In this document: positions 6,223-14,919 of the stretch, one piece after another
Position numbering within the stretch: the stretch's first letter is position 1
Layout of the letters: each line of letters opens with the position of its first letter
Source of the DNA: an uncultured Gammaproteobacteria bacterium
GTDB taxonomy: Bacteria > Pseudomonadota > Gammaproteobacteria > Steroidobacterales > Rariloculaceae
Direction: 5' to 3'
Assembly (NCBI GenBank): GCA_963714705.1
Contig: CAVQPJ010000005.1
Location: 270,321 to 334,320 of the forward strand
Length of the DNA stretch: 64,000 nucleotides
Made by a program: the position numbers and the translations under genes
The notes under the pieces: generated by a model
Database searches by the model: none
What the model was told of the DNA's origin: nothing
Seen by the model: the letters and a program-made list of their open reading frames with translations, nothing else

Positions 6223-7517
<1,295 letters not shown>

Positions 7518-7521
7518 CGCG

Positions 7522-8969
7522 ATGAAGATCCTGATGGTCTGCGCGGAGTTCGCCCCGTGGGCGAAAACCGGCGGACTGGCCGACGCCGTAGCGGGCTTGA
7601 GCGACGCGCTCTGCGCGCGCGGCCACGACGTGCGCGTGCTTGCTGCCGCGCTACTCGCATCTCGCCGGCGCCGCGCGGCCGGCGGCACACGCGTGCGCCG
7701 GCCTCGGCGGGCCGTTCCTCGCTGAGCCGAGCTCGAGCCCGCAGCAGCAAGCCGAACGCTGCAGGCGAGCACGCGTCGCAACGCGCCCGCGCGTCTTCCT
7801 GCTCGAGCTCGGCGAGCTGACCGCGGACGCCATCTATACCGGCGACGCGCGCGATGCAGGCCGGTTCCTGCACCTGTCGCGCCGCCGCGGTTGCCTTGAG
7901 CGCGGCCGACGGCTGGCGCCCCGACGTCCTCCATTGCCACGACTGGCACACGGCGCTCGTCCCGGTGCTCCAGCGCCTCGAGCCGCGCAGCACCGCGCCG
8001 AGCGTGCTCACGCTGCACAACGTCGGCTACCAAGGCGTGTTCGCCGACGAGGTCCTCGACGAGCACGGCTTCGCGGCGCTCGAGCAGGTGCTGCCCGCCG
8101 ACGCACGCGCGGGCGGCGGCACGAATTTCCTGCGCGCCGGGCTACGCGCGGCCAGATCGCGTCACGACCGTGAGCCCGACGTACGCCGAGGAGATTCAGC
8201 ACGGCCCGAGTTCGGTATGGGCCTCGAGGACGTGCTGCGCGCGCGCGGCCGCGACCTCGTCGGCATCTTGAACGGCGTCGACTATGGCGTCTGGTCGCCG
8301 GACCAGCGACCCGTTTCTGGCGCGAGCACTACGACGCGACGGACCTCGCGCCGAAACGCCGCATCAAGGAGCAGCTCACTCGAGCGGCTCGAGCTCGCGC
8401 CCGACAATCGACGCTCCGCTGGTCGGCGTCGTGAGCCGCCTCGTCGAGCAGAAAGGCATCGACCTCTTGACGCGCGGTGCTGCCGGCGCTGCTGCCGGAC
8501 ACGCGCGCGACCTTCGCCGTGCTCGGCAACGGCGACGCGCCGCTCGCCGGCGAGCTGCGCCGCCTCGCCGACGCTCATCCGCGACCGTGTGTCGTTCACC
8601 GAAGGCTACGACGAAGCGCTCGCGCACGAGATCTTCGCCGGCTCCGACTTGACGGTCGTGCCGTCGCGTTACGAGCCGTGCGGCCTCACGCAGATGTACG
8701 CGCTGCGCTACGGCACGATTCCCGTCGTGCGCGCGACGGGCGGCCTCGCCGACACGATCCAGCACTTCGACGCGGCGACGGGCACGGCAACGGCAGCGTG
8801 TTTCGCGACGCCGACCCGCAAGGCGTGCTGTGGGGCGTCGACACGGCGCTCGGCTGGTTCGACGACCGCGCCGCCTGGTCGCACCTCGTCCGCAACGCGA
8901 TGGCGGCCGACTTCTCCTGGCCGAAGCAGGTGCCCTCACTACGAGGAGCTCTACCGGTCGTTGCTCTAA
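7522..8969 (+). CDS. glgA: Glycogen synthase (ADP-glucose type), frame-interrupted
   Basis: 7522..7725 (MKILMVCAEFAPWAKTGGLADAVAGLSDALCARGHDVRVL). 7854..8969 (DVLHCHDWHTALVPVL...LTLHNVGYQGVF...VVPSRYEPCGLTQMYALRYGTIPVVRATGGLADTI). The ATG is 4 nt after the gltA stop. Confidence 0.9.
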
Positions 8970-9135
8970 CCCGCTTGGCGGCGTGTTGCCGAATCGGCAG
9001 GGCGGCCAGGTGCGGCGTATCTCTCGTGAACCCCTTTGAAGCTCTGATCGGTCCTCCGCGAGCGTGCGTGGCCTAGCGTCGCGACAGGGGTGCGGCTGAA
9101 CTCTTGCGTCAGTTGCGCACGCACCCAGCCAGCTC

Positions 9136-9336
9136 TTGACCAAATCGGTGTCAACGAGAAACGGGAAATCCCACGATCAGCTCGTGCGCGAGTACGGCGA
9201 ACACATCCCCACGCGCCACCTGCACTTCATCATGGGCACGATGGCCGCCCATCCGCGCACGTTCATCGTCATCGGGCTGCTGCGCTCCGGCCTCGATCCC
9301 GCCGAGCTCGCCAAGCAGAGCGATCTGTTCAAGTAA
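9136..9336 (+). other. Short ORF, possibly the 3-prime remnant of an unidentified gene
   Basis: The 66-aa ORF (…HDQLVREYGEHIPTRHLHFIMGTMAAHPRTFIVIGLLRSGLDPAELAKQSDLFK) has a plausible C-terminal part but an unconvincing N-terminal 12 aa. It lies between glgA and the Rhs cassette. I recognise no family. Confidence 0.2.
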
Positions 9337-9342
9337 CGATTG

Positions 9343-9666
9343 CTAGAGTCGAGAAGGTAATCCGAGCGTACTCAAGACTGCCTTTTCATTCGTGTGATAG
9401 CACCGAACCATATGATCGCAGTACTCCGCGACCGTACGGATCTCCAACGCTCCGGAGTCGATTTGCTTGAGCGATTGGCGATCAGCCACGTCGCGAATGT
9501 CATGAAGCATCTGGTCGTACTCGTTGTACTTGAAGTCCGACCTCCCGCTGCTTCTCAGATCCTCTCCGAAGATGTGCTCCGGGCGAACTCTGTCAGCCAG
9601 CATCCCAAACACTTGCGCGATTCGTTGACGCGCAGCGAGTGCGATTTCGCTATCTGAATACTTCAT
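9343..9666 (-). CDS. Putative cognate immunity protein of the Rhs C-terminal toxin (107 aa, frame-intact)
   Basis: The start is 9 nt downstream of the rhs stop on the same strand, and the gene is small. G+C is clearly lower here (hand counts 29/60 at 9361-9420 and 30/60 at 9481-9540). This is the classical toxin-immunity arrangement for Rhs loci. Confidence 0.6.
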   Translation of the reverse strand: MKYSDSEIALAARQRIAQVFGMLADRVRPEHIFGEDLRSSGRSDFKYNEYDQMLHDIRDVADRQSLKQIDSGALEIRTVAEYCDHMVRCYHTNEKAVLSTLGLPSRL

Positions 9667-9675
9667 TTGCCTTGC

Positions 9676-12600
9676 TCAGTTGCCGCATCCACAGTCTTCC
9701 TGCGGGTTCGATGTAGTGTCGTAGGCCGCCTTGCCGATGACTCCAATGTCATAGAAGCCCTCTCCAACGACAGCGAGCGTGGCGACGGCGCCGGCGACAA
9801 TACCGGCAGTCGTCCTGCCCGCGGCGCGTAGCGCTCTCATCCCCAGGCGGTTCGACCAACGACTGAGTTGGCCGGTCGTTGGATTCAACTCGCCTTTCGG
9901 AACTCCAAAGCCCCTGAGCTCACCTGGCGTTTTTGGCATCGTGCCTACCCCCTCCATGGCAATCAGGCTGCCAAGGGTCAGGGCGTTGCTGGCTCTATTT
10001 TCTCGGATCTGGTTCGCGAACGCGTCAAAGTCGACACACCATGCACCGCGCGCAGCGTTGCGCTCAAAAGCGTCTCGCTGTGGGCCAGGAGGGAAAGTCC
10101 AATACCCGATGCCCTCCAGGCCCAAGGGATCGACGTACCGCAGCGGGTTTCCGTTGCCGTACAAGTACGGATTCAGGCCGCCTGCCAAGCCGATGGGATC
10201 TGATTGCGCGTAGCGGCCAACGACTGGATCGTAATCGCGGAAGTAGTTGTAGTTCAGCCCCGAGTGCGCATCGTAGAGCTGGCCCGGGAACCGCAGGTTG
10301 TACTTGAAATTGCCGAGCGATTGCGGGTTCTCGTTCGGCAGCGCCGTGCCGAAGGGATCGCTCTCCCACGTCCAGCGCGCCTTGTTGTCGCTCGGGCGTG
10401 TCACCTTCCGTGGCGTGTTCAAGTGATCCGTGTGCACGTAGAAAATCCCCACCGGCGTCCCGGGCCGCAACGTCGCCACCGGCGTGTCGCCCAGCCAGAG
10501 CGTCTCTTGGACGAGCGCGCCGCTTGAATTGTATTCCCCCAATACGTGGCCGGCTTCGTCGTACACATAATGCACCGTGCCCGGCGTGCCACCGACGCGC
10601 TTCACGAGCTCGCCGAGGGCGTTATAGGTAAACGTCGCCGTCGTCGAGCCCACCTTCAGCGTCTTCATCCGGCCGCGGTTGTTGTACGTCGCCGTGACAT
10701 TGGAGTAGGTCAGCGCGCTGCCGACGGCGTTGTAGGTGTACGTGCGGCTCACCGCGCCCGCGATCGAGCTCACGCGGTTGTTGGAAGACGAGATCGTGTA
10801 CGTCGAGGGCGAAGCGCCGGTCTCTGAGAGCCGGTTGCCGTTCGCATCGTACGTCCAGCCGCGCGTCGTCCCGGTCTTCACCGCGCTCGTCAGCCGATCG
10901 AGGCCGTTGTAACCGTAGGTGTAGCTGTTCGCCGGCGTCACCGTGTCGGTAGTGGCGGTGGCCCTGAACGCATCGTCGTAGGCGTAGGTCTTGTTGCCCG
11001 CGCTCGCGATCGCCGTCACCTTGCCGTCGGTGTCGAACGTGCGGCTCATCGGCGTGCCGTTGCCCCAGGTCCAGCCCTTCACGGGCCCGAACGGCTCGTA
11101 GCTCACGCTCGACAGCAGCGTCGTGCCGTTGACCGTGATGCTCGTGACCTGGTTGTTCGCGTTGTAGCCGTAGACCACCGCCTGGCCCGACGGCGTCGTC
11201 AGCGAGGTGAGATTGCCGTTCGTGTAGCCATAGCCGACGCTCTTCGCCACCGTGCCGACGGTCTGGCTCTTGCTCGTCACGCGCCCGAGCGCGTCGTAGA
11301 CCCAGCCCATCGAGTGGTTGGCGTCGCTCGCCCCGGTGCGCCGGCCCTTGCCGTACGTGCCCGCATCGTAAGTGAATGCGATCGTCTGATCGGTCGTCGT
11401 GCCGATCTTGTAGGCGGCCGACGTCACGCGGTTCAGCGCGTCGTACACGTAGGTCGTGATCGCGTTGCGCGCGTCCGTCGAGGTTTTCAGGTTGCCGCCG
11501 GAATCGTATGTGTTCGTCGTGAGCCCTGTGTCGGGGCTTGTTTGCGTCTTCAGATCGTCGAAGCCGTTATACGTGTAGCTCGTGACCTTGCTGCGCGGAT
11601 CGGTCACCGACGTCATGTTGTCGTTCGCGTCATAGCCGAGTAGCGTGATGCCGCTCGCGGGATCTGTCATCTGGATCAGTCGCCCGAGCTCGTCGTACGC
11701 GTTGACGGTGTTGCGCCCCAGCGGCGCGTTGATGGCCGTCCGATTGCCGCGCGTGTCATAGCCGAATTCCGTCGTCTGCGCGGCCGTGCCGGCGGCGGTC
11801 AAGTCCTTCCAGAGCTGATTGAGGTTGTTGAAGACGCTCGAGCGCGTGCGGCGCAGGAAGTTCGTCGGATCGTAGACGTTCTCCGCGGTGCGGTTGCCCA
11901 TGCCGTCGAGCGTGTAGGCGACGTAGTTGCCGGCCGCGTCGTCGATGCGCGTCAGGCGATGCGCGTTGTCGTAGGTGTACAGCACGAAGCTCGAGTCCGG
12001 CAGCGTCACCCTCTTCACGAGTCCGGTGGGCCAGTACTCGAGCGTCGTTTGCTCGCCCGCGACCGTGCGGCTCGTCAGGCGTTGGCGCGCGTCGTACGCG
12101 AGCGTGGTCACCACGCCGTTCGGATCCGTGATCTGCAGCGGCTGGCCATGCGCGTTGTAGCTGTTGAAAGTCGTCACTTGGCTCAGCGCGTTCGTCATCG
12201 TTTGCACCTGCCCGCACTGGGAGCCCGTGCCGCAGGTGTAATAGACGAGCGTCGTCAAGTCGGTGGCGTCGGTGCGCGGGCCGTTCGCCGTCAGCACGCG
12301 GCCGTAGGTGTCGTAGGTCCACGTCGTGCGACGCACTTCGCTCGTGACGGTGTCCGTGACCTTGTGCTCGAGCAGGCGGCCGCTCGCGTCGTAGTCCAAG
12401 TCCGTGGTGCGGCCCGGTTCGGTGATCAGGTCTGGGAGCCGGAAACTCGGGTGCCACGTGGTGGAAATCGTTCGCGCCCGCGGCGTGCCGTAGGCTTCGG
12501 TGCGCGAGGTCTCGAGAGTCCGGGCGGTGTCGTGGGTGTACCGGGTCTCAACGCCGTTGAAGTCGAACTTGCTCTGAAAGTTGCCGAATGAATCGAACGT

Positions 12601-13455
12601 GGCGCTCGCATACTCGTTGCAACCCTGGCACAGCAGATTCGAACCCGTGTACCGGCGCTGCCCCGCGATGACCGACGTCGTGTAGGTGCGGCTCGTGCCG
12701 AGCGGATCGACGACGATGCGCGTGCCGTCGGTGTTGTAGGTGATGCCGTAACTGTCGACGCCGCCCGTGTACACGGAGCTCGTGACGACGTTGCCTGCAC
12801 CATAACCCCACGTCACGTAGCGGACGCCGGATTCGTCCTCGATGCCCGTGAGCAGATTCGCTTGCCCGGTCCCCGTGAGCTCGTAGAGGTACTCCCGCGT
12901 GCGCGTGTCGGGATACGTGACCTGCGTCAGGTTGTTGTTGGCGCCGTACGTGAACACGATTTGGCCGGAACCGGCGCCGGGCAGCGTGACGCTCGCGAGG
13001 CGCGGCGGCGAAGCCGTATCCCACTGAAACGTGAGCTCATGGCCGAAGTCGTCGACCAGCGAGGCGACGCGGCCGTTCGCACCGTAAGTGAGCGCCTGCG
13101 TGATGCCGCCACGGCCCGTGATTGTGAGCAGCCGGCCGGTCGTGTCGTAAAGCTCCGCACTGTCATTCGCCGTGATGTAGCGCCAACCGACGAACGCCCC
13201 GGAGGGGTTCGTGGCCACGACGAGCCGCTCCTTGAGCTCGCCTTCGGCCACGTATTGCGTGGACGTCGACCCCGGGATCGTGGCCGTGAAGGCGACCACG
13301 TCACCATCGGGGCGCACGGCGTGCAACACGGGCGAATTCAAACCCGATGCGGCCGAGAGGTATTGAAGATACGAGCCGAACCACGCTTCCCCGAGGGGCT
13401 TGCCATAGGGGCCTTGTTTCGCGGAGTGATAACCGAGGCTGTTGTAGGTGCGCCC
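9676..13455 (-). CDS. Rhs-family YD-repeat protein with variable C-terminal toxin domain; no canonical start and N-terminal delivery region absent
   Basis: About 1258 codons are frame-intact inside ORF 9676..14148. There are many YD-type repeats (YDTTGRLLTITG, YDASGRLLEH, TYDTYGRVLTANG, YDARQRLTSRT, YDNAHRLTRIDD, YDELGRLIQMTD, YDALNRVTSA, YDALGRVTSK...). The Rhs core end reads FYVHTDHLNTPRKVT...RFPGQLYDAHSGLNYNYFRDYDPVVGRYAQSDPIGLAGGLNPYLYGNGNPLRYVDPLGLEG. There is no ATG in frame for more than 600 codons after the point where MalQ-like sequence ends. Confidence 0.9.
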   Translation of the reverse strand, partial: GRTYNSLGYHSAKQGPYGKPLGEAWFGSYLQYLSAASGLNSPVLHAVRPDGDVVAFTATIPGSTSTQYVAEGELKERLVVATNPSGAFVGWRYITANDSAELYDTTGRLLTITGRGGITQALTYGANGRVASLVDDFGHELTFQWDTASPPRLASVTLPGAGSGQIVFTYGANNNLTQVTYPDTRTREYLYELTGTGQANLLTGIEDESGVRYVTWGYGAGNVVTSSVYTGGVDSYGITYNTDGTRIVVDPLGTSRTYTTSVIAGQRRYTGSNLLCQGCNEYASATFDSFGNFQSKFDFNGVETRYTHDTARTLETSRTEAYGTPRARTISTTWHPSFRLPDLITEPGRTTDLDYDASGRLLEHKVTDTVTSEVRRTTWTYDTYGRVLTANGPRTDATDLTTLVYYTCGTGSQCGQVQTMTNALSQVTTFNSYNAHGQPLQITDPNGVVTTLAYDARQRLTSRTVAGEQTTLEYWPTGLVKRVTLPDSSFVLYTYDNAHRLTRIDDAAGNYVAYTLDGMGNRTAENVYDPTNFLRRTRSSVFNNLNQLWKDLTAAGTAAQTTEFGYDTRGNRTAINAPLGRNTVNAYDELGRLIQMTDPASGITLLGYDANDNMTSVTDPRSKVTSYTYNGFDDLKTQTSPDTGLTTNTYDSGGNLKTSTDARNAITTYVYDALNRVTSAAYKIGTTTDQTIAFTYDAGTYGKGRRTGASDANHSMGWVYDALGRVTSKSQTVGTVAKSVGYGYTNGNLTSLTTPSGQAVVYGYNANNQVTSITVNGTTLLSSVSYEPFGPVKGWTWGNGTPMSRTFDTDGKVTAIASAGNKTYAYDDAFRATATTDTVTPANSYTYGYNGLDRLTSAVKTGTTRGWTYDANGNRLSETGASPSTYTISSSNNRVSSIAGAVSRTYTYNAVGSALTYSNVTATYNNRGRMKTLKVGSTTATFTYNALGELVKRVGGTPGTVHYVYDEAGHVLGEYNSSGALVQETLWLGDTPVATLRPGTPVGIFYVHTDHLNTPRKVTRPSDNKARWTWESDPFGTALPNENPQSLGNFKYNLRFPGQLYDAHSGLNYNYFRDYDPVVGRYAQSDPIGLAGGLNPYLYGNGNPLRYVDPLGLEGIGYWTFPPGPQRDAFERNAARGAWCVDFDAFANQIRENRASNALTLGSLIAMEGVGTMPKTPGELRGFGVPKGELNPTTGQLSRWSNRLGMRALRAAGRTTAGIVAGAVATLAVVGEGFYDIGVIGKAAYDTTSNPQEDCGCGN
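9679..10110 (-). other. Rhs C-terminal variable (toxin) domain, 144 aa after the DPLGLEG boundary
   Basis: IGYWTFPPGPQRDAFERNAARGAWCVDFDAFANQIRENRASNALTLGSLIAMEGVGTMPKTPGELRGFGVPKGELNPTTGQLSRWSNRLGMRALRAAGRTTAGIVAGAVATLAVVGEGFYDIGVIGKAAYDTTSNPQEDCGCGN. It includes a Gly/Ala-rich hydrophobic stretch (TAGIVAGAVATLAVVGEGFYDIGVIG). I recognise no nuclease, deaminase or ADP-ribosyltransferase motif. Confidence 0.7.
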
Positions 13456-14919
13456 TAGGGCAGGCGACCCGAGCGAACGGCGCGTTCGCGGCACGCGGCG
13501 GCGAGCGACGGCCGGCACGTCGGGCCACGCGAAGCGCCAGCGCCAGTTGCCGACGACGGTGCCCGGCGTGTTCATGCGGGCGCCGGAGTCGCGCGCCGAG
13601 CAGGTCCTGCATCGGGCACGATCGCGAGCGCGGCGTTCGAGGCGTAGGCCGCGTCGATCAGGAAGTCGGGCACCGGCGGCGTCGGGCCCGACGCCGAGCA
13701 TGCCGTGCACGACGTCGCGCGCATGCGGCTCGAGCGAGGCGTACCAGCCGACGGTCGTGTCGTTGTCGTGCGTGCCCGTGTAGACGACGGCGTTGCGCCG
13801 GTGATGCTGCGGCAGATGCGGATTGTCGGGCGAGCCGTCGAATGCGAACTGCAGCACGACCATGCCCGGCAGCTCGAAGCGGTCGCGCAGCGCGCGCACG
13901 TCGTCCGTGATGATGCCGAGATCCTCGGCGACGAGCGGCATCTCGCCGAGCTCGCGCGCGCAACGCCGTCGAGCAACGCGTCGCCGCGCCCGCGCACGCC
14001 ATTGCCCGAGCGCGCGCCGTCGGCGCGCCCGCCGGCACCTCCCAGTACGACTCGAGCGCGCGGAAGTGATCGATGCGCACGAGATCGAAGCGCGCGAGCT
14101 GCGCGCGCATGCGCGTCGAGCCACCAGCGGAAGCCGCTGCTGCTCCATCGCGTCCCAGTCGTACAGCGGGTTGCCCCAGAGCTGGCCTTCGGCGTTGAAG
14201 TAGTCCGGCGGTACGCCCGCGACGCGCGATCGGCTCGCCGCTCGCGTCGAGCGCGAACAGCTCGCGCTCCCACCAGACGTCGACGCTGTTGCGGTCGACG
14301 TAGAACGGCAGGTCGCCGAAGAGATGGACGCCGCGCTCGTTCGCGTAGCGCTTCAGCGCCGTCCACTGCAGCTCGAACAGGTACTGCTCGAACACGAGTG
14401 CGCGAAACTGCTCGCGACTCGCGGCGCGAGCACGCGCGCAGCGCCGCGGCGTCGCGGTCGCGGTACGGCGCCGGCCATTGCCACCACGGCGACTGGCCGA
14501 AGCGCTCGCTCAGAGCAGCTCGAACAGGCCGTAGGGCAGCGAGCCAGCGGCGGCGCGCGCGCACGAACTCCGCGAACGCGCGCGTTGCTCGCGCCGTCGC
14601 GAGCGCCGCGAACGACGCGTAGCGGGCGTCGCGGCCGCCGCGACGCCTCGAGCCGCGCGGCAGCTCGGCGACGGCGTCGAGCTCCTCGGCGTCGATGAAC
14701 CGCGGATCGCCGGCATAGGCCGAGCGCAAGGCAGTACGGCGAACCGTACGCGTCCGTGACGCCGAGCGGCAACGTCTGCCAGACGCTGAATCCGCCCGCG
14801 CCGAGCCAATCGACGAAGCGCCGCGCGTCGGCGCCGAGCGTGCCGCGCGGCGCCATGGCCCGGCAGCGAGGTGGGATGGAGCAAGACGCCGGCGCGGCGC
14901 GCGGCGAGCACGCGTTCAT
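13455..14919 (-). CDS. malQ: 4-alpha-glucanotransferase (amylomaltase), frame-interrupted
   Basis: 14510..14911 (RRAGVLLHPTSLPG). 14353..14919 (FVDWLGAGGFSVWQTLPLGVTDAYGSPY). 13658..14395 (FEQYLFELQWTALKRYANERGVHLFGDLPFYVDRNSVDVWW...DLVRIDHFRALESYWEVPAG). In ORF 9676..14148: MPLVAEDLGIITDDVRALRDRFELPGMVVLQFAFDG...VVYTGTHDNDTTVGWY...RMNTPGTVVGNWRWRF. My translation of another frame gives a typical tail, PSLAAACRERAVRSGRLP, ending at the TAG at 13455-13457. Confidence 0.85.

Follow-up and report, generated by a model that had tools for sequence, protein, structure and literature searches.

Among the chief weapons with which bacteria compete are Rhs toxins, most of whose C-terminal tips have no known activity. 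Tse5 (RhsP1, PA2684) of Pseudomonas aeruginosa is a type VI secretion system (T6SS) effector with structures in the PDB. The Tse5 toxin is released from the C-terminus of an Rhs shell after a DPxGL-type motif and is a small hydrophobic domain that depolarizes the inner membrane of the target cell (PMC9637101, PMC10684867). EsxX and TelE are polymorphic glycine-zipper toxins of the Gram-positive type VII secretion system (T7SS); EsxX, with its zipper helix near the C-terminus, is neutralized in the cytoplasm by the soluble antidote ExiAB, so that a membrane depolarizer can have a soluble immunity protein (PMC12744356). In the Agrobacterium T6SS effector Tde1, GxxxG motifs in an N-terminal zipper permeabilize the cytoplasmic membrane and accompany a deoxyribonuclease (DNase) activity (PMC10240207). 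Sec-dependent Rhs/YD toxins of the WapA type combine a signal peptide, a DUF6531 domain and an Rhs shell, and also occur as orphan toxin-immunity modules. Here we describe an Rhs toxin tip and the gene downstream of it in a 64,000-nucleotide stretch of DNA (hereafter the window) from an uncultured Gammaproteobacteria bacterium (contig CAVQPJ010000005.1 of assembly GCA_963714705.1, positions 270,321 to 334,320). The tip and this gene are very probably a true toxin-immunity pair of a new family, and the toxin may be a membrane-inserting, depolarizing protein that is capped from the cytoplasmic side, a reading to which we assign a probability of roughly 0.45.

A previous reading made from the sequence alone (the sequence-only reading) had placed a 144-residue Rhs C-terminal tip at 9679-10110, and translation of the minus strand recovered exactly the residues it had quoted, followed by a stop codon at 9676-9678. 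The tip closes a minus-strand open reading frame (ORF) of 1490 residues at 9676-14148, which in translation is an Rhs protein from about residue 225 on and ends in ...GNPLRYVDPLGLEG before running into the 144-residue tip. Searches of Pfam and NCBIfam matched Rhs repeats in this ORF (PF05593, E=1.9e-65, in 16 stretches; TIGR01643, E=1e-42), and placed an Rhs-associated core at residues 1264-1344 (TIGR03696, E=4.6e-21). The Rhs/YD-repeat shell is truncated at its 5′ end and spans 10111-13456 on the minus strand, as delimited by PF05593 and NF041261 matches and by tblastn alignment to a paralogue on contig C13 of the same genome. The boundary between shell and toxin is marked by a canonical PxxxxDPxGL Rhs C-terminal motif (PLRYVDPLGL, 10117-10146, minus strand), and the tip starts directly behind PLRYVDPLGL-EG.

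Judged by alignment with its relatives, the tip is made of two parts, a 21-residue linker (IGYWTFPPGPQRDAFERNAAR, 10048-10110, minus strand) and a conserved toxin core of 123 residues (GAWCVDFDAF...EDCGCGN, 9679-10047, minus strand). The linker is missing from most family members, and we treat it as a separate unit because most relatives pass from DPxGL almost directly into C-F-D-F-D. It is shared by a few members (P0013, P0027 and P0029), and in a further protein, P0079, it stands before an unrelated tip; since a different tip follows it there, the linker behaves as an independent pre-toxin module. A consensus of this module, GLEG-(I/V/T)G-x-WT(F/Y)-x-PG-x-QRD-x-(F/Y)E, can be read after the Rhs cleavage motif in the window copy and in P0013, P0027, P0029, P0050 and P0079.

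The toxin core belongs to a compact family spread across Proteobacteria and one Kiritimatiellales genome. A full HMMER scan of 1.84 billion representatives, clustered at 50% identity and searched at E≤0.001, returned 72 clusters for the core, 15 of them below 1e-30; the family is at least of this size. A word-indexed search limited to the tip found 10 full-length Rhs proteins with 58-73% identity to it, including proteins of Microbulbifer, Massilia and Roseateles, and scans of genome and metagenome collections yielded 58 loci (17 + 41) from Beta- and Gammaproteobacteria, one Kiritimatiellales metagenome-assembled genome, and soil and water metagenomes. Recurrence on this scale goes far beyond chance. 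The closest loci lie on two soil contigs, with 83% identity in the toxin and 89% in the immunity protein. All carriers that were checked are Rhs/YD proteins. Full-length carriers have a Sec-type signal peptide, DUF6531 and an Rhs shell, as do WapA-type toxins, and many of the other loci are short or 5′-truncated orphan modules that retain toxin and immunity gene. Sec signals and DUF6531 set these carriers apart from Tse5, and the two genomic neighborhoods of carriers that were inspected contained no genes of a T6SS; they also differ from EsxX, which has an LXG/T7SS carrier and shows no detected sequence similarity to the toxin described here. The family also bears on the means by which Rhs proteins that leave the cell by the Sec route, with no injection apparatus, act within a competitor.

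Pfam, NCBIfam and the PDB contain no entry for the toxin. For the tip and 45 family members, Pfam and NCBIfam returned only noise below threshold; PDB chains gave no match to the toxin by phmmer or with a profile of the 45 sequences; a Foldseek comparison of the low-confidence toxin-only model with PDB folds gave one meaningless match; and the signature peptides of the family had no match in a full-text literature search. The sequence-only reading had seen no HNH, GHH, deaminase, ADP-ribosyltransferase (ART) or RNase signature in the tip and could not name its family. Both statements hold: no Pfam or NCBIfam family reaches its cut-off for the tip or the 45 members, the predicted fold is all-helical and unlike BECR or ART folds, and the family has neither a name in these databases nor a PDB relative by sequence, profile or fold. 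In this respect as well the toxin is unlike Tse5, with no similarity at any of these levels to any PDB chain, and the likeness to Tse5 lies in the architecture of the carrier and in the proposed action. An RNase of the BECR/RelE/colicin-E5 kind, which had been prompted by the conserved Arg, Lys, Thr, Gln and Tyr residues, was dropped as a candidate because both structural models of the toxin are all-helical.

Several individual carriers and relatives merit description in their own right. On a contig of Halioglobus japonicus (L013, 2783-10360) a cysteine-free version of the toxin is borne by a 2526-residue protein with SpvB, FG-GAP and Rhs parts, a fused TcB/TcC-like architecture unlike the DUF6531 type. 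In Methylomonas methanica (L061; CP002738.1, 4023571-4043891) the toxin lies in an Rhs array, the first gene of which encodes a full-length 1866-residue Rhs protein with a transglutaminase-like domain and DUF6531 and has its own 126-residue downstream gene. It is followed by a 1042-residue Rhs module that starts at DUF6531 and bears the toxin and immunity pair, and then by another Rhs fragment, which is the textbook layout for tip swapping. In P0053 (167 residues), a close relative from a metagenome, the final 49 toxin residues continue into the immunity protein in a shifted frame (MRWSDAEIARASRQRIA ... DDYCNHMIHSYRTNEK), through either decay of the copy or an error in sequencing.

The gene at 9343-9666 (minus strand) encodes a soluble protein of 107 residues, starts 9 nucleotides after the toxin stop codon in the same frame, and has AAGG 5 nucleotides before its ATG. 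By tblastn, a homologue lies directly downstream of the toxin in 50 of the 58 loci, the exceptions being cut contigs or distant branches of the family. Pairwise distances between toxins and between immunity proteins are correlated with r=0.70, a value that none of 500 label shuffles reached, and the immunity protein diverges faster than the toxin. On this evidence from sequence comparison 9343-9666 is the cognate immunity gene, co-evolving with the toxin. Immunity proteins of the family measure 105-125 residues, carry no signal peptide, and form at least 185 clusters at 90% identity in a profile search. All of these clusters are annotated as hypothetical except one, which UniRef calls an acyl carrier protein (ACP). 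There is one conserved immunity gene per locus, which differs from the EsxX system, where the polytopic ExiCD is also needed against external toxin.

The fold of the pair was predicted with AlphaFold2 (AF2). In the window the two genes share a frame, and a read-through of toxin and immunity protein could therefore be folded as one chain, with the stop read as Gly and a block alignment of 69 rows. This fusion model has an overall predicted local distance difference test score (pLDDT) of 83 and a predicted template modeling score (pTM) of 0.54, and its immunity half reaches pLDDT 91-98. When the fusion model was compared with the PDB by Foldseek, ACPs took 48 of the top 50 places, with E-values of 0.6-5 and template modeling scores on the target of 0.5-0.64 that are individually non-significant; carrier domains were likewise matched in BFVD. 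In both databases the only matches were to ACPs or carriers and fell on the immunity half, with none for the toxin half. In a search of PDB sequences with the immunity-family profile the first nine places were again ACPs, at individually non-significant E-values of 0.06-0.4 (best 0.059), and an hhalign comparison with E. coli AcpP gave a weak but co-linear match (E=0.002, probability 14%).

The resemblance extends to the order of recognizable elements. Like ACP and other PP-binding domains, the immunity protein is modeled as a four-helix bundle, and helix I, the loop F-x-(E/D)-L (F-x-EDL) and the final helix (I-x-T-V-x-D-Y) are co-linear between the two. The position of the phosphopantetheine serine of ACP is occupied by F, P or G in HMMER alignments, with a conserved S43 two residues later. 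Taken together, these individually weak values make a predicted ACP-like four-helix fold that lacks the carrier serine credible for the immunity protein. It is unlike ACP in being about 30 residues longer, in having a conserved YCxHMVRC helix, in giving no match to PF00550 in 42 immunity members at E≤10, and in always lying beside an Rhs toxin and not among genes for lipids or polyketides. Pfam and NCBIfam yielded nothing above threshold for the immunity protein or the 42 members. It also differs from ExiA and ExiB, which are alpha/beta DUF5085 proteins with a hydrophobic groove, and from the immunity of Tse5 in being soluble and ACP-like. The best-conserved surface of the protein comprises the acidic helix II region (S43, N48, D51, D56 and D59) and the YCxHMVRC helix. 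We know of no prior description of an ACP fold in an immunity protein, and a literature search, which did not ask about ACP-directed toxins, found no paper on ACP-like immunity proteins of polymorphic toxins.

The toxin itself folds poorly when modeled alone: an alignment of 42 sequences gave an all-helical AF2 model with pLDDT 60.7 and pTM 0.29, as is expected of a domain that depends on a membrane or a partner. The toxin half of the fusion model is also all-helical, with helices at core residues 7-17, 21-34, 41-46, 57-68, 70-77 and 80-111, and contains a bridge between residues 5 and 112. The last and longest of these helices, H6 (core residues 80-111, TAGIVAGAVATLAVVGEGFYDIGVIGKAAYDT; 9715-9810, minus strand), carries the zipper and the family signature. 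The sequence-only reading had drawn attention to a Gly/Ala/Val-rich stretch with small-xxx-small periodicity, and this stretch indeed contains AGIVAGAVA, in which G-IVA-G-AVA-T forms a canonical GxxxGxxx(G/S/T) zipper. In core numbering the zipper is G82-IVA-G86-AVA-T90, and the strict motif is present in 46 of the 85 distinct family members for which column conservation, charge and cysteine counts were computed.

Across these members, H6 combines the zipper with an (E/D)GFY(D/N) signature, and conservation is 84% for G82, 95% for G/S86, 91% for T90, 97% for E/D96, 95% for Y99, and 100% for both G97 and D/N100, with A89, F98, G102 and G105 as further conserved positions. The predicted helix is 16.6% glycine. 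If it is drawn as an ideal helix, G82, G/S86, A89, T90, G97, E/D96 and D/N100 all fall within one 120-degree arc, so that the small residues and the acidic pair lie on one face. The zipper of Tde1 is an accessory to a DNase domain distinct from it, whereas here the zipper helix accounts for one quarter of a 123-residue domain with no recognizable enzyme part.

Outside H6, conservation is concentrated in an N-terminal helix with the pattern F-x-x-F-A-x-x-I-x-x-N-R and in a basic loop that spans core residues 36-79 (TMPKTPGELRG...SRWSNRLGMRALRAAGRT; 9811-9942, minus strand). In and next to this loop G35, K39, E43, T58, Q60, S62, R63, R67, R74, G77 and R78 are near-invariant. The mean net charge is −2.0 for residues 1-35, +6.1 for the loop (with a minimum of +3) and −2.1 for the remainder, with the basic segment between two acidic ends. 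About three quarters of the members have a CxC tail, and the numbers of cysteines at the N- and C-terminal ends co-vary, as (1,2) in 58 members, (0,1) in 11, (0,0) in 7 and (3,3) in 5. This co-variation is consistent with the two ends being linked, and they also lie side by side in the model. In distant branches of the L052 and L058 type the loop motifs are gone and the N-terminal helix and EGFYD are retained.

A further line of evidence comes from these distant branches. Where no immunity gene was detectable by tblastn, ORFs downstream of the toxin were read directly, and they revealed four kinds of membrane-anchored protein (L057, L052, the L058 type and L053/L054). The first three begin with a hydrophobic helix (Kyte-Doolittle hydropathy, KD, of 1.9-2.7), followed by an Arg/Lys run and then the ACP-like domain; in L053/L054 the order is reversed, with the domain first, then WRR, then a C-terminal hydrophobic helix. 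By the positive-inside rule the domain is predicted to be cytoplasmic in all of them. Comparison with the soluble family by hhalign gave a probability of 87% (E=3.9e-6) for L057, 23% (E=9e-4) for L052, and 21.5% (E=1e-3) for L058 as a single sequence, which rose to 52% (E=1.4e-4) in a profile-profile comparison with the L058-type family of 17 sequences; the tail-anchored protein of L054 gave no significant result. The L058-type family forms 17 clusters with KD values over 19 residues of 2.1-3.1, and its members always follow an Rhs protein ending in EGFYDIGV; in four contigs the preceding Rhs protein ends in ...EGFYDIGVLGYC. A transmembrane tail at the C-terminus (KD 2.38) is also present in P0174, a canonical member of the immunity family. 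That the antidote has repeatedly gained a tether at the cytoplasmic face speaks for an encounter with the toxin there.

We propose that the all-helical toxin, once released at PxxxxDPxGL, would associate with the cytoplasmic membrane of the target through its long Gly/Ala/Thr-rich helix, in which G-x3-(G/S)-x3-T is followed by (E/D)GFY(D/N). Copies of the toxin could then pack against one another through the small-residue face, whose acidic residues would line an ion path and dissipate the membrane potential. In such an arrangement the +6 loop, from K39 to R78, would lie at the cytoplasmic face, and the acidic N- and C-terminal ends, joined by the cysteine link, would remain outside. The ACP-like immunity protein may bind the exposed basic loop from the cytoplasm via its conserved acidic helix II, and this binding would block assembly or conduction. 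If the model is true, the pair would follow EsxX/ExiAB as the second example in which a soluble protein counters a membrane-acting toxin from the cytoplasm, and would show an ACP fold used as an antidote. Toxin (123 residues) and immunity protein (107 residues) are both short and clonable.

The sequence-only reading had suggested a membrane-targeting, depolarizing effector, and this suggestion has gained indirect support from the zipper face, the charge pattern, the co-varying cysteines and the anchored immunity proteins. The abundance of glycine in the helix and the poor folding of the toxin alone also speak for it. A number of observations nevertheless weigh against it. The helix, predicted to be 32 residues long, is only marginally hydrophobic: its best 19-residue window has KD 1.6 (family median 1.36), and summing roughly on the Hessa scale gives about +4.5 kcal/mol. 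Confidence in the toxin half of the fusion model is low to moderate (pLDDT 64-83, pTM 0.54), no similarity to known pore-formers in the PDB is seen in sequence, profile or fold, and the near-invariant polar residues of the loop (T58, Q60, S62, R63, K39 and E43), for which a simple pore would have no need, resemble a binding or active site more than part of a pore. On the immunity side, 118 of the 120 listed clusters are soluble and have no hydrophobic segment, and among the anchored proteins two homologies are weak (probabilities of 21-23%) and one is not significant. The immunity proteins of channel-formers are polytopic "in almost all cases" (PMC12744356), but the neutralization of the glycine-zipper depolarizer EsxX by soluble ExiAB in the cytoplasm provides a precedent (PMC12744356).

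The same observations define the principal competing explanation, in which the target is cytoplasmic. The basic loop, with T58, Q60, S62, R63, K39 and E43, would then form an active site, or a site that binds an acidic cytoplasmic partner (nucleic acid, nucleotide or protein, for example). The Gly-rich helix would either lie buried as the core of a small helical bundle or carry the domain across the inner membrane, as proposed for the zipper of Tde1. The near-invariance of the polar loop residues, the marginal hydrophobicity, and an immunity protein that has no signal peptide and is soluble in nearly all listed clusters are what would be expected, Tde1 provides a precedent for a zipper in translocation (PMC10240207), and the Sec signals of the carriers imply that a cytoplasmic immunity protein must meet a toxin arriving from outside. 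However, the toxin matches no enzymatic family, has no conserved His and few acidic residues, and its predicted all-helical fold with 16.6% Gly in the main helix would be unusual for a soluble enzyme. Distant members that lose the loop motifs keep EGFYD and the N-terminal helix, the immunity protein has repeatedly gained a membrane anchor, and the co-varying terminal cysteines point to an oxidizing compartment. Considering both sets of observations, we find a cytoplasmic target possible but doubtful.

The fold of the immunity protein raises a different explanation, namely that it descends from ACP and acts as a decoy by filling the site with which the toxin grips ACP or acyl-ACP. In that case the toxin would interfere with lipid synthesis or some other step at the membrane that depends on ACP, or require ACP as a cofactor, with the conserved Arg/Lys loop as its ACP-binding site and the zipper helix holding it at the membrane. 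ACP partners bind ACP through surfaces of this Arg/Lys type, and surface conservation in the immunity protein is highest in the acidic helix II region, which corresponds to the recognition helix of ACP. Some immunity proteins mimic the substrate of their toxin, for example those of colicin E5 and colicin D, and the co-linear match to E. coli AcpP, weak as it is, fits such a descent. The basis for this explanation is fold resemblance only, though, with neither the Foldseek (E 0.6-5) nor the HMMER values (E 0.06-0.4) individually significant, and the carrier serine is replaced by F, P or G. We also know of no ACP-directed interbacterial toxin, and on balance regard the decoy as improbable; if true, it would represent the first interbacterial toxin that seizes (acyl-)ACP or the ACP-docking step of lipid synthesis at the inner membrane. 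Least probable by far is that the tip is a non-functional segment, either a low-complexity hydrophobic tail or an annotation artifact. The assembly is indeed rich in errors, with 58% completeness in 16 contigs and malQ spread over three frames, and the Rhs gene of the window lacks a start codon and an export signal. Yet the Rhs frame is intact over 3.8 kb, as is the immunity gene, and the domain is conserved at 55-83% identity in distant bacteria along with its immunity gene, which refutes such an explanation for the family as a whole. Of these readings we continue to favor the membrane-inserting toxin capped from the cytoplasm.

The window copy of the Rhs gene is truncated. The long ORF begins with the last ~170 residues of MalQ, and the 3′ part of malQ (13455-14148, minus strand; PF02446 positions 300-460 aligned to residues 48-207 of the ORF) shares the open frame with Rhs and lies outside the toxin system. 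The true end of malQ is likely …SLAAACRERAVRSGRLP, in another frame with a TAG stop at 13455-13457, and Rhs homology starts right there. By tblastn and Pfam, the homology to the C13 paralogue of this genome, which is 58% identical, begins at about residue 209, inside DUF6531, so that the signal peptide and the N-terminal part are missing. Three-frame reading of the junction DNA found no start codon for the window Rhs gene near the junction. The sequence-only reading had missed this loss of the export end. The toxin is therefore probably not exported from this copy, as far as can be read from the DNA. The cassette is likely a stored orphan module whose intact immunity gene would protect against neighbors armed with the toxin. 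Compared with WapA-type orphans it is unusually long, with a shell of ~1115 residues, and it does not lie behind a full-length rhs gene but alone between glgA and malQ.

By its composition and distribution the window locus is, on our reading of the sequence, a horizontally acquired orphan cassette. A lower-GC insertion at 8970-13456, between the convergent glgA and malQ genes, comprises the truncated Rhs gene, the toxin, the immunity gene and a 373-bp remnant; GC content is 57-67% within the cassette and 70-75% in the flanks. The glgA-malQ gap measures ~230 bp in a relative (G009), and searches of 84 other genomes of the bacterial family did not find the toxin. Judged from these comparisons, the insertion is lineage-specific. 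The 373 bp at 8970-9342, which separate the immunity gene from the point where glgA homology stops, show a protein-like C-terminal reading (...HLHFIMGTMAAHPRTFIVIGLLRSGLDPAELAKQSDLFK*) after in-frame stops, and are probably a gene remnant that came with the insertion. At the same glgA-malQ spot two relatives, G003 (L070 4215-6390) and G002 (L072 3892-6400), have a different insert of 2.2-2.5 kb with unrelated ORFs, one of which has several hydrophobic segments; the spot appears to be a recurrent insertion point in the genus.

Several housekeeping genes of the window are split over several frames, including malQ (13455-14900, three frames), citrate synthase (6223-7525) and glgA (7522-8969). Together with the low marker completeness, these split frames fit many assembly indel errors. 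The genome has a second Rhs locus (G000 contig C13:815143-822574; L060 3144-10574), which encodes the paralogue used above for comparison, a 1436-residue Rhs protein with DUF6531 and a different, unassigned tip. The ORF upstream of it combines malectin, fn3 and Ig domains and closes with an RHS repeat, and the two may be one gene split by a frameshift. Downstream are two short Rhs-core fragments that are probably orphan tips.

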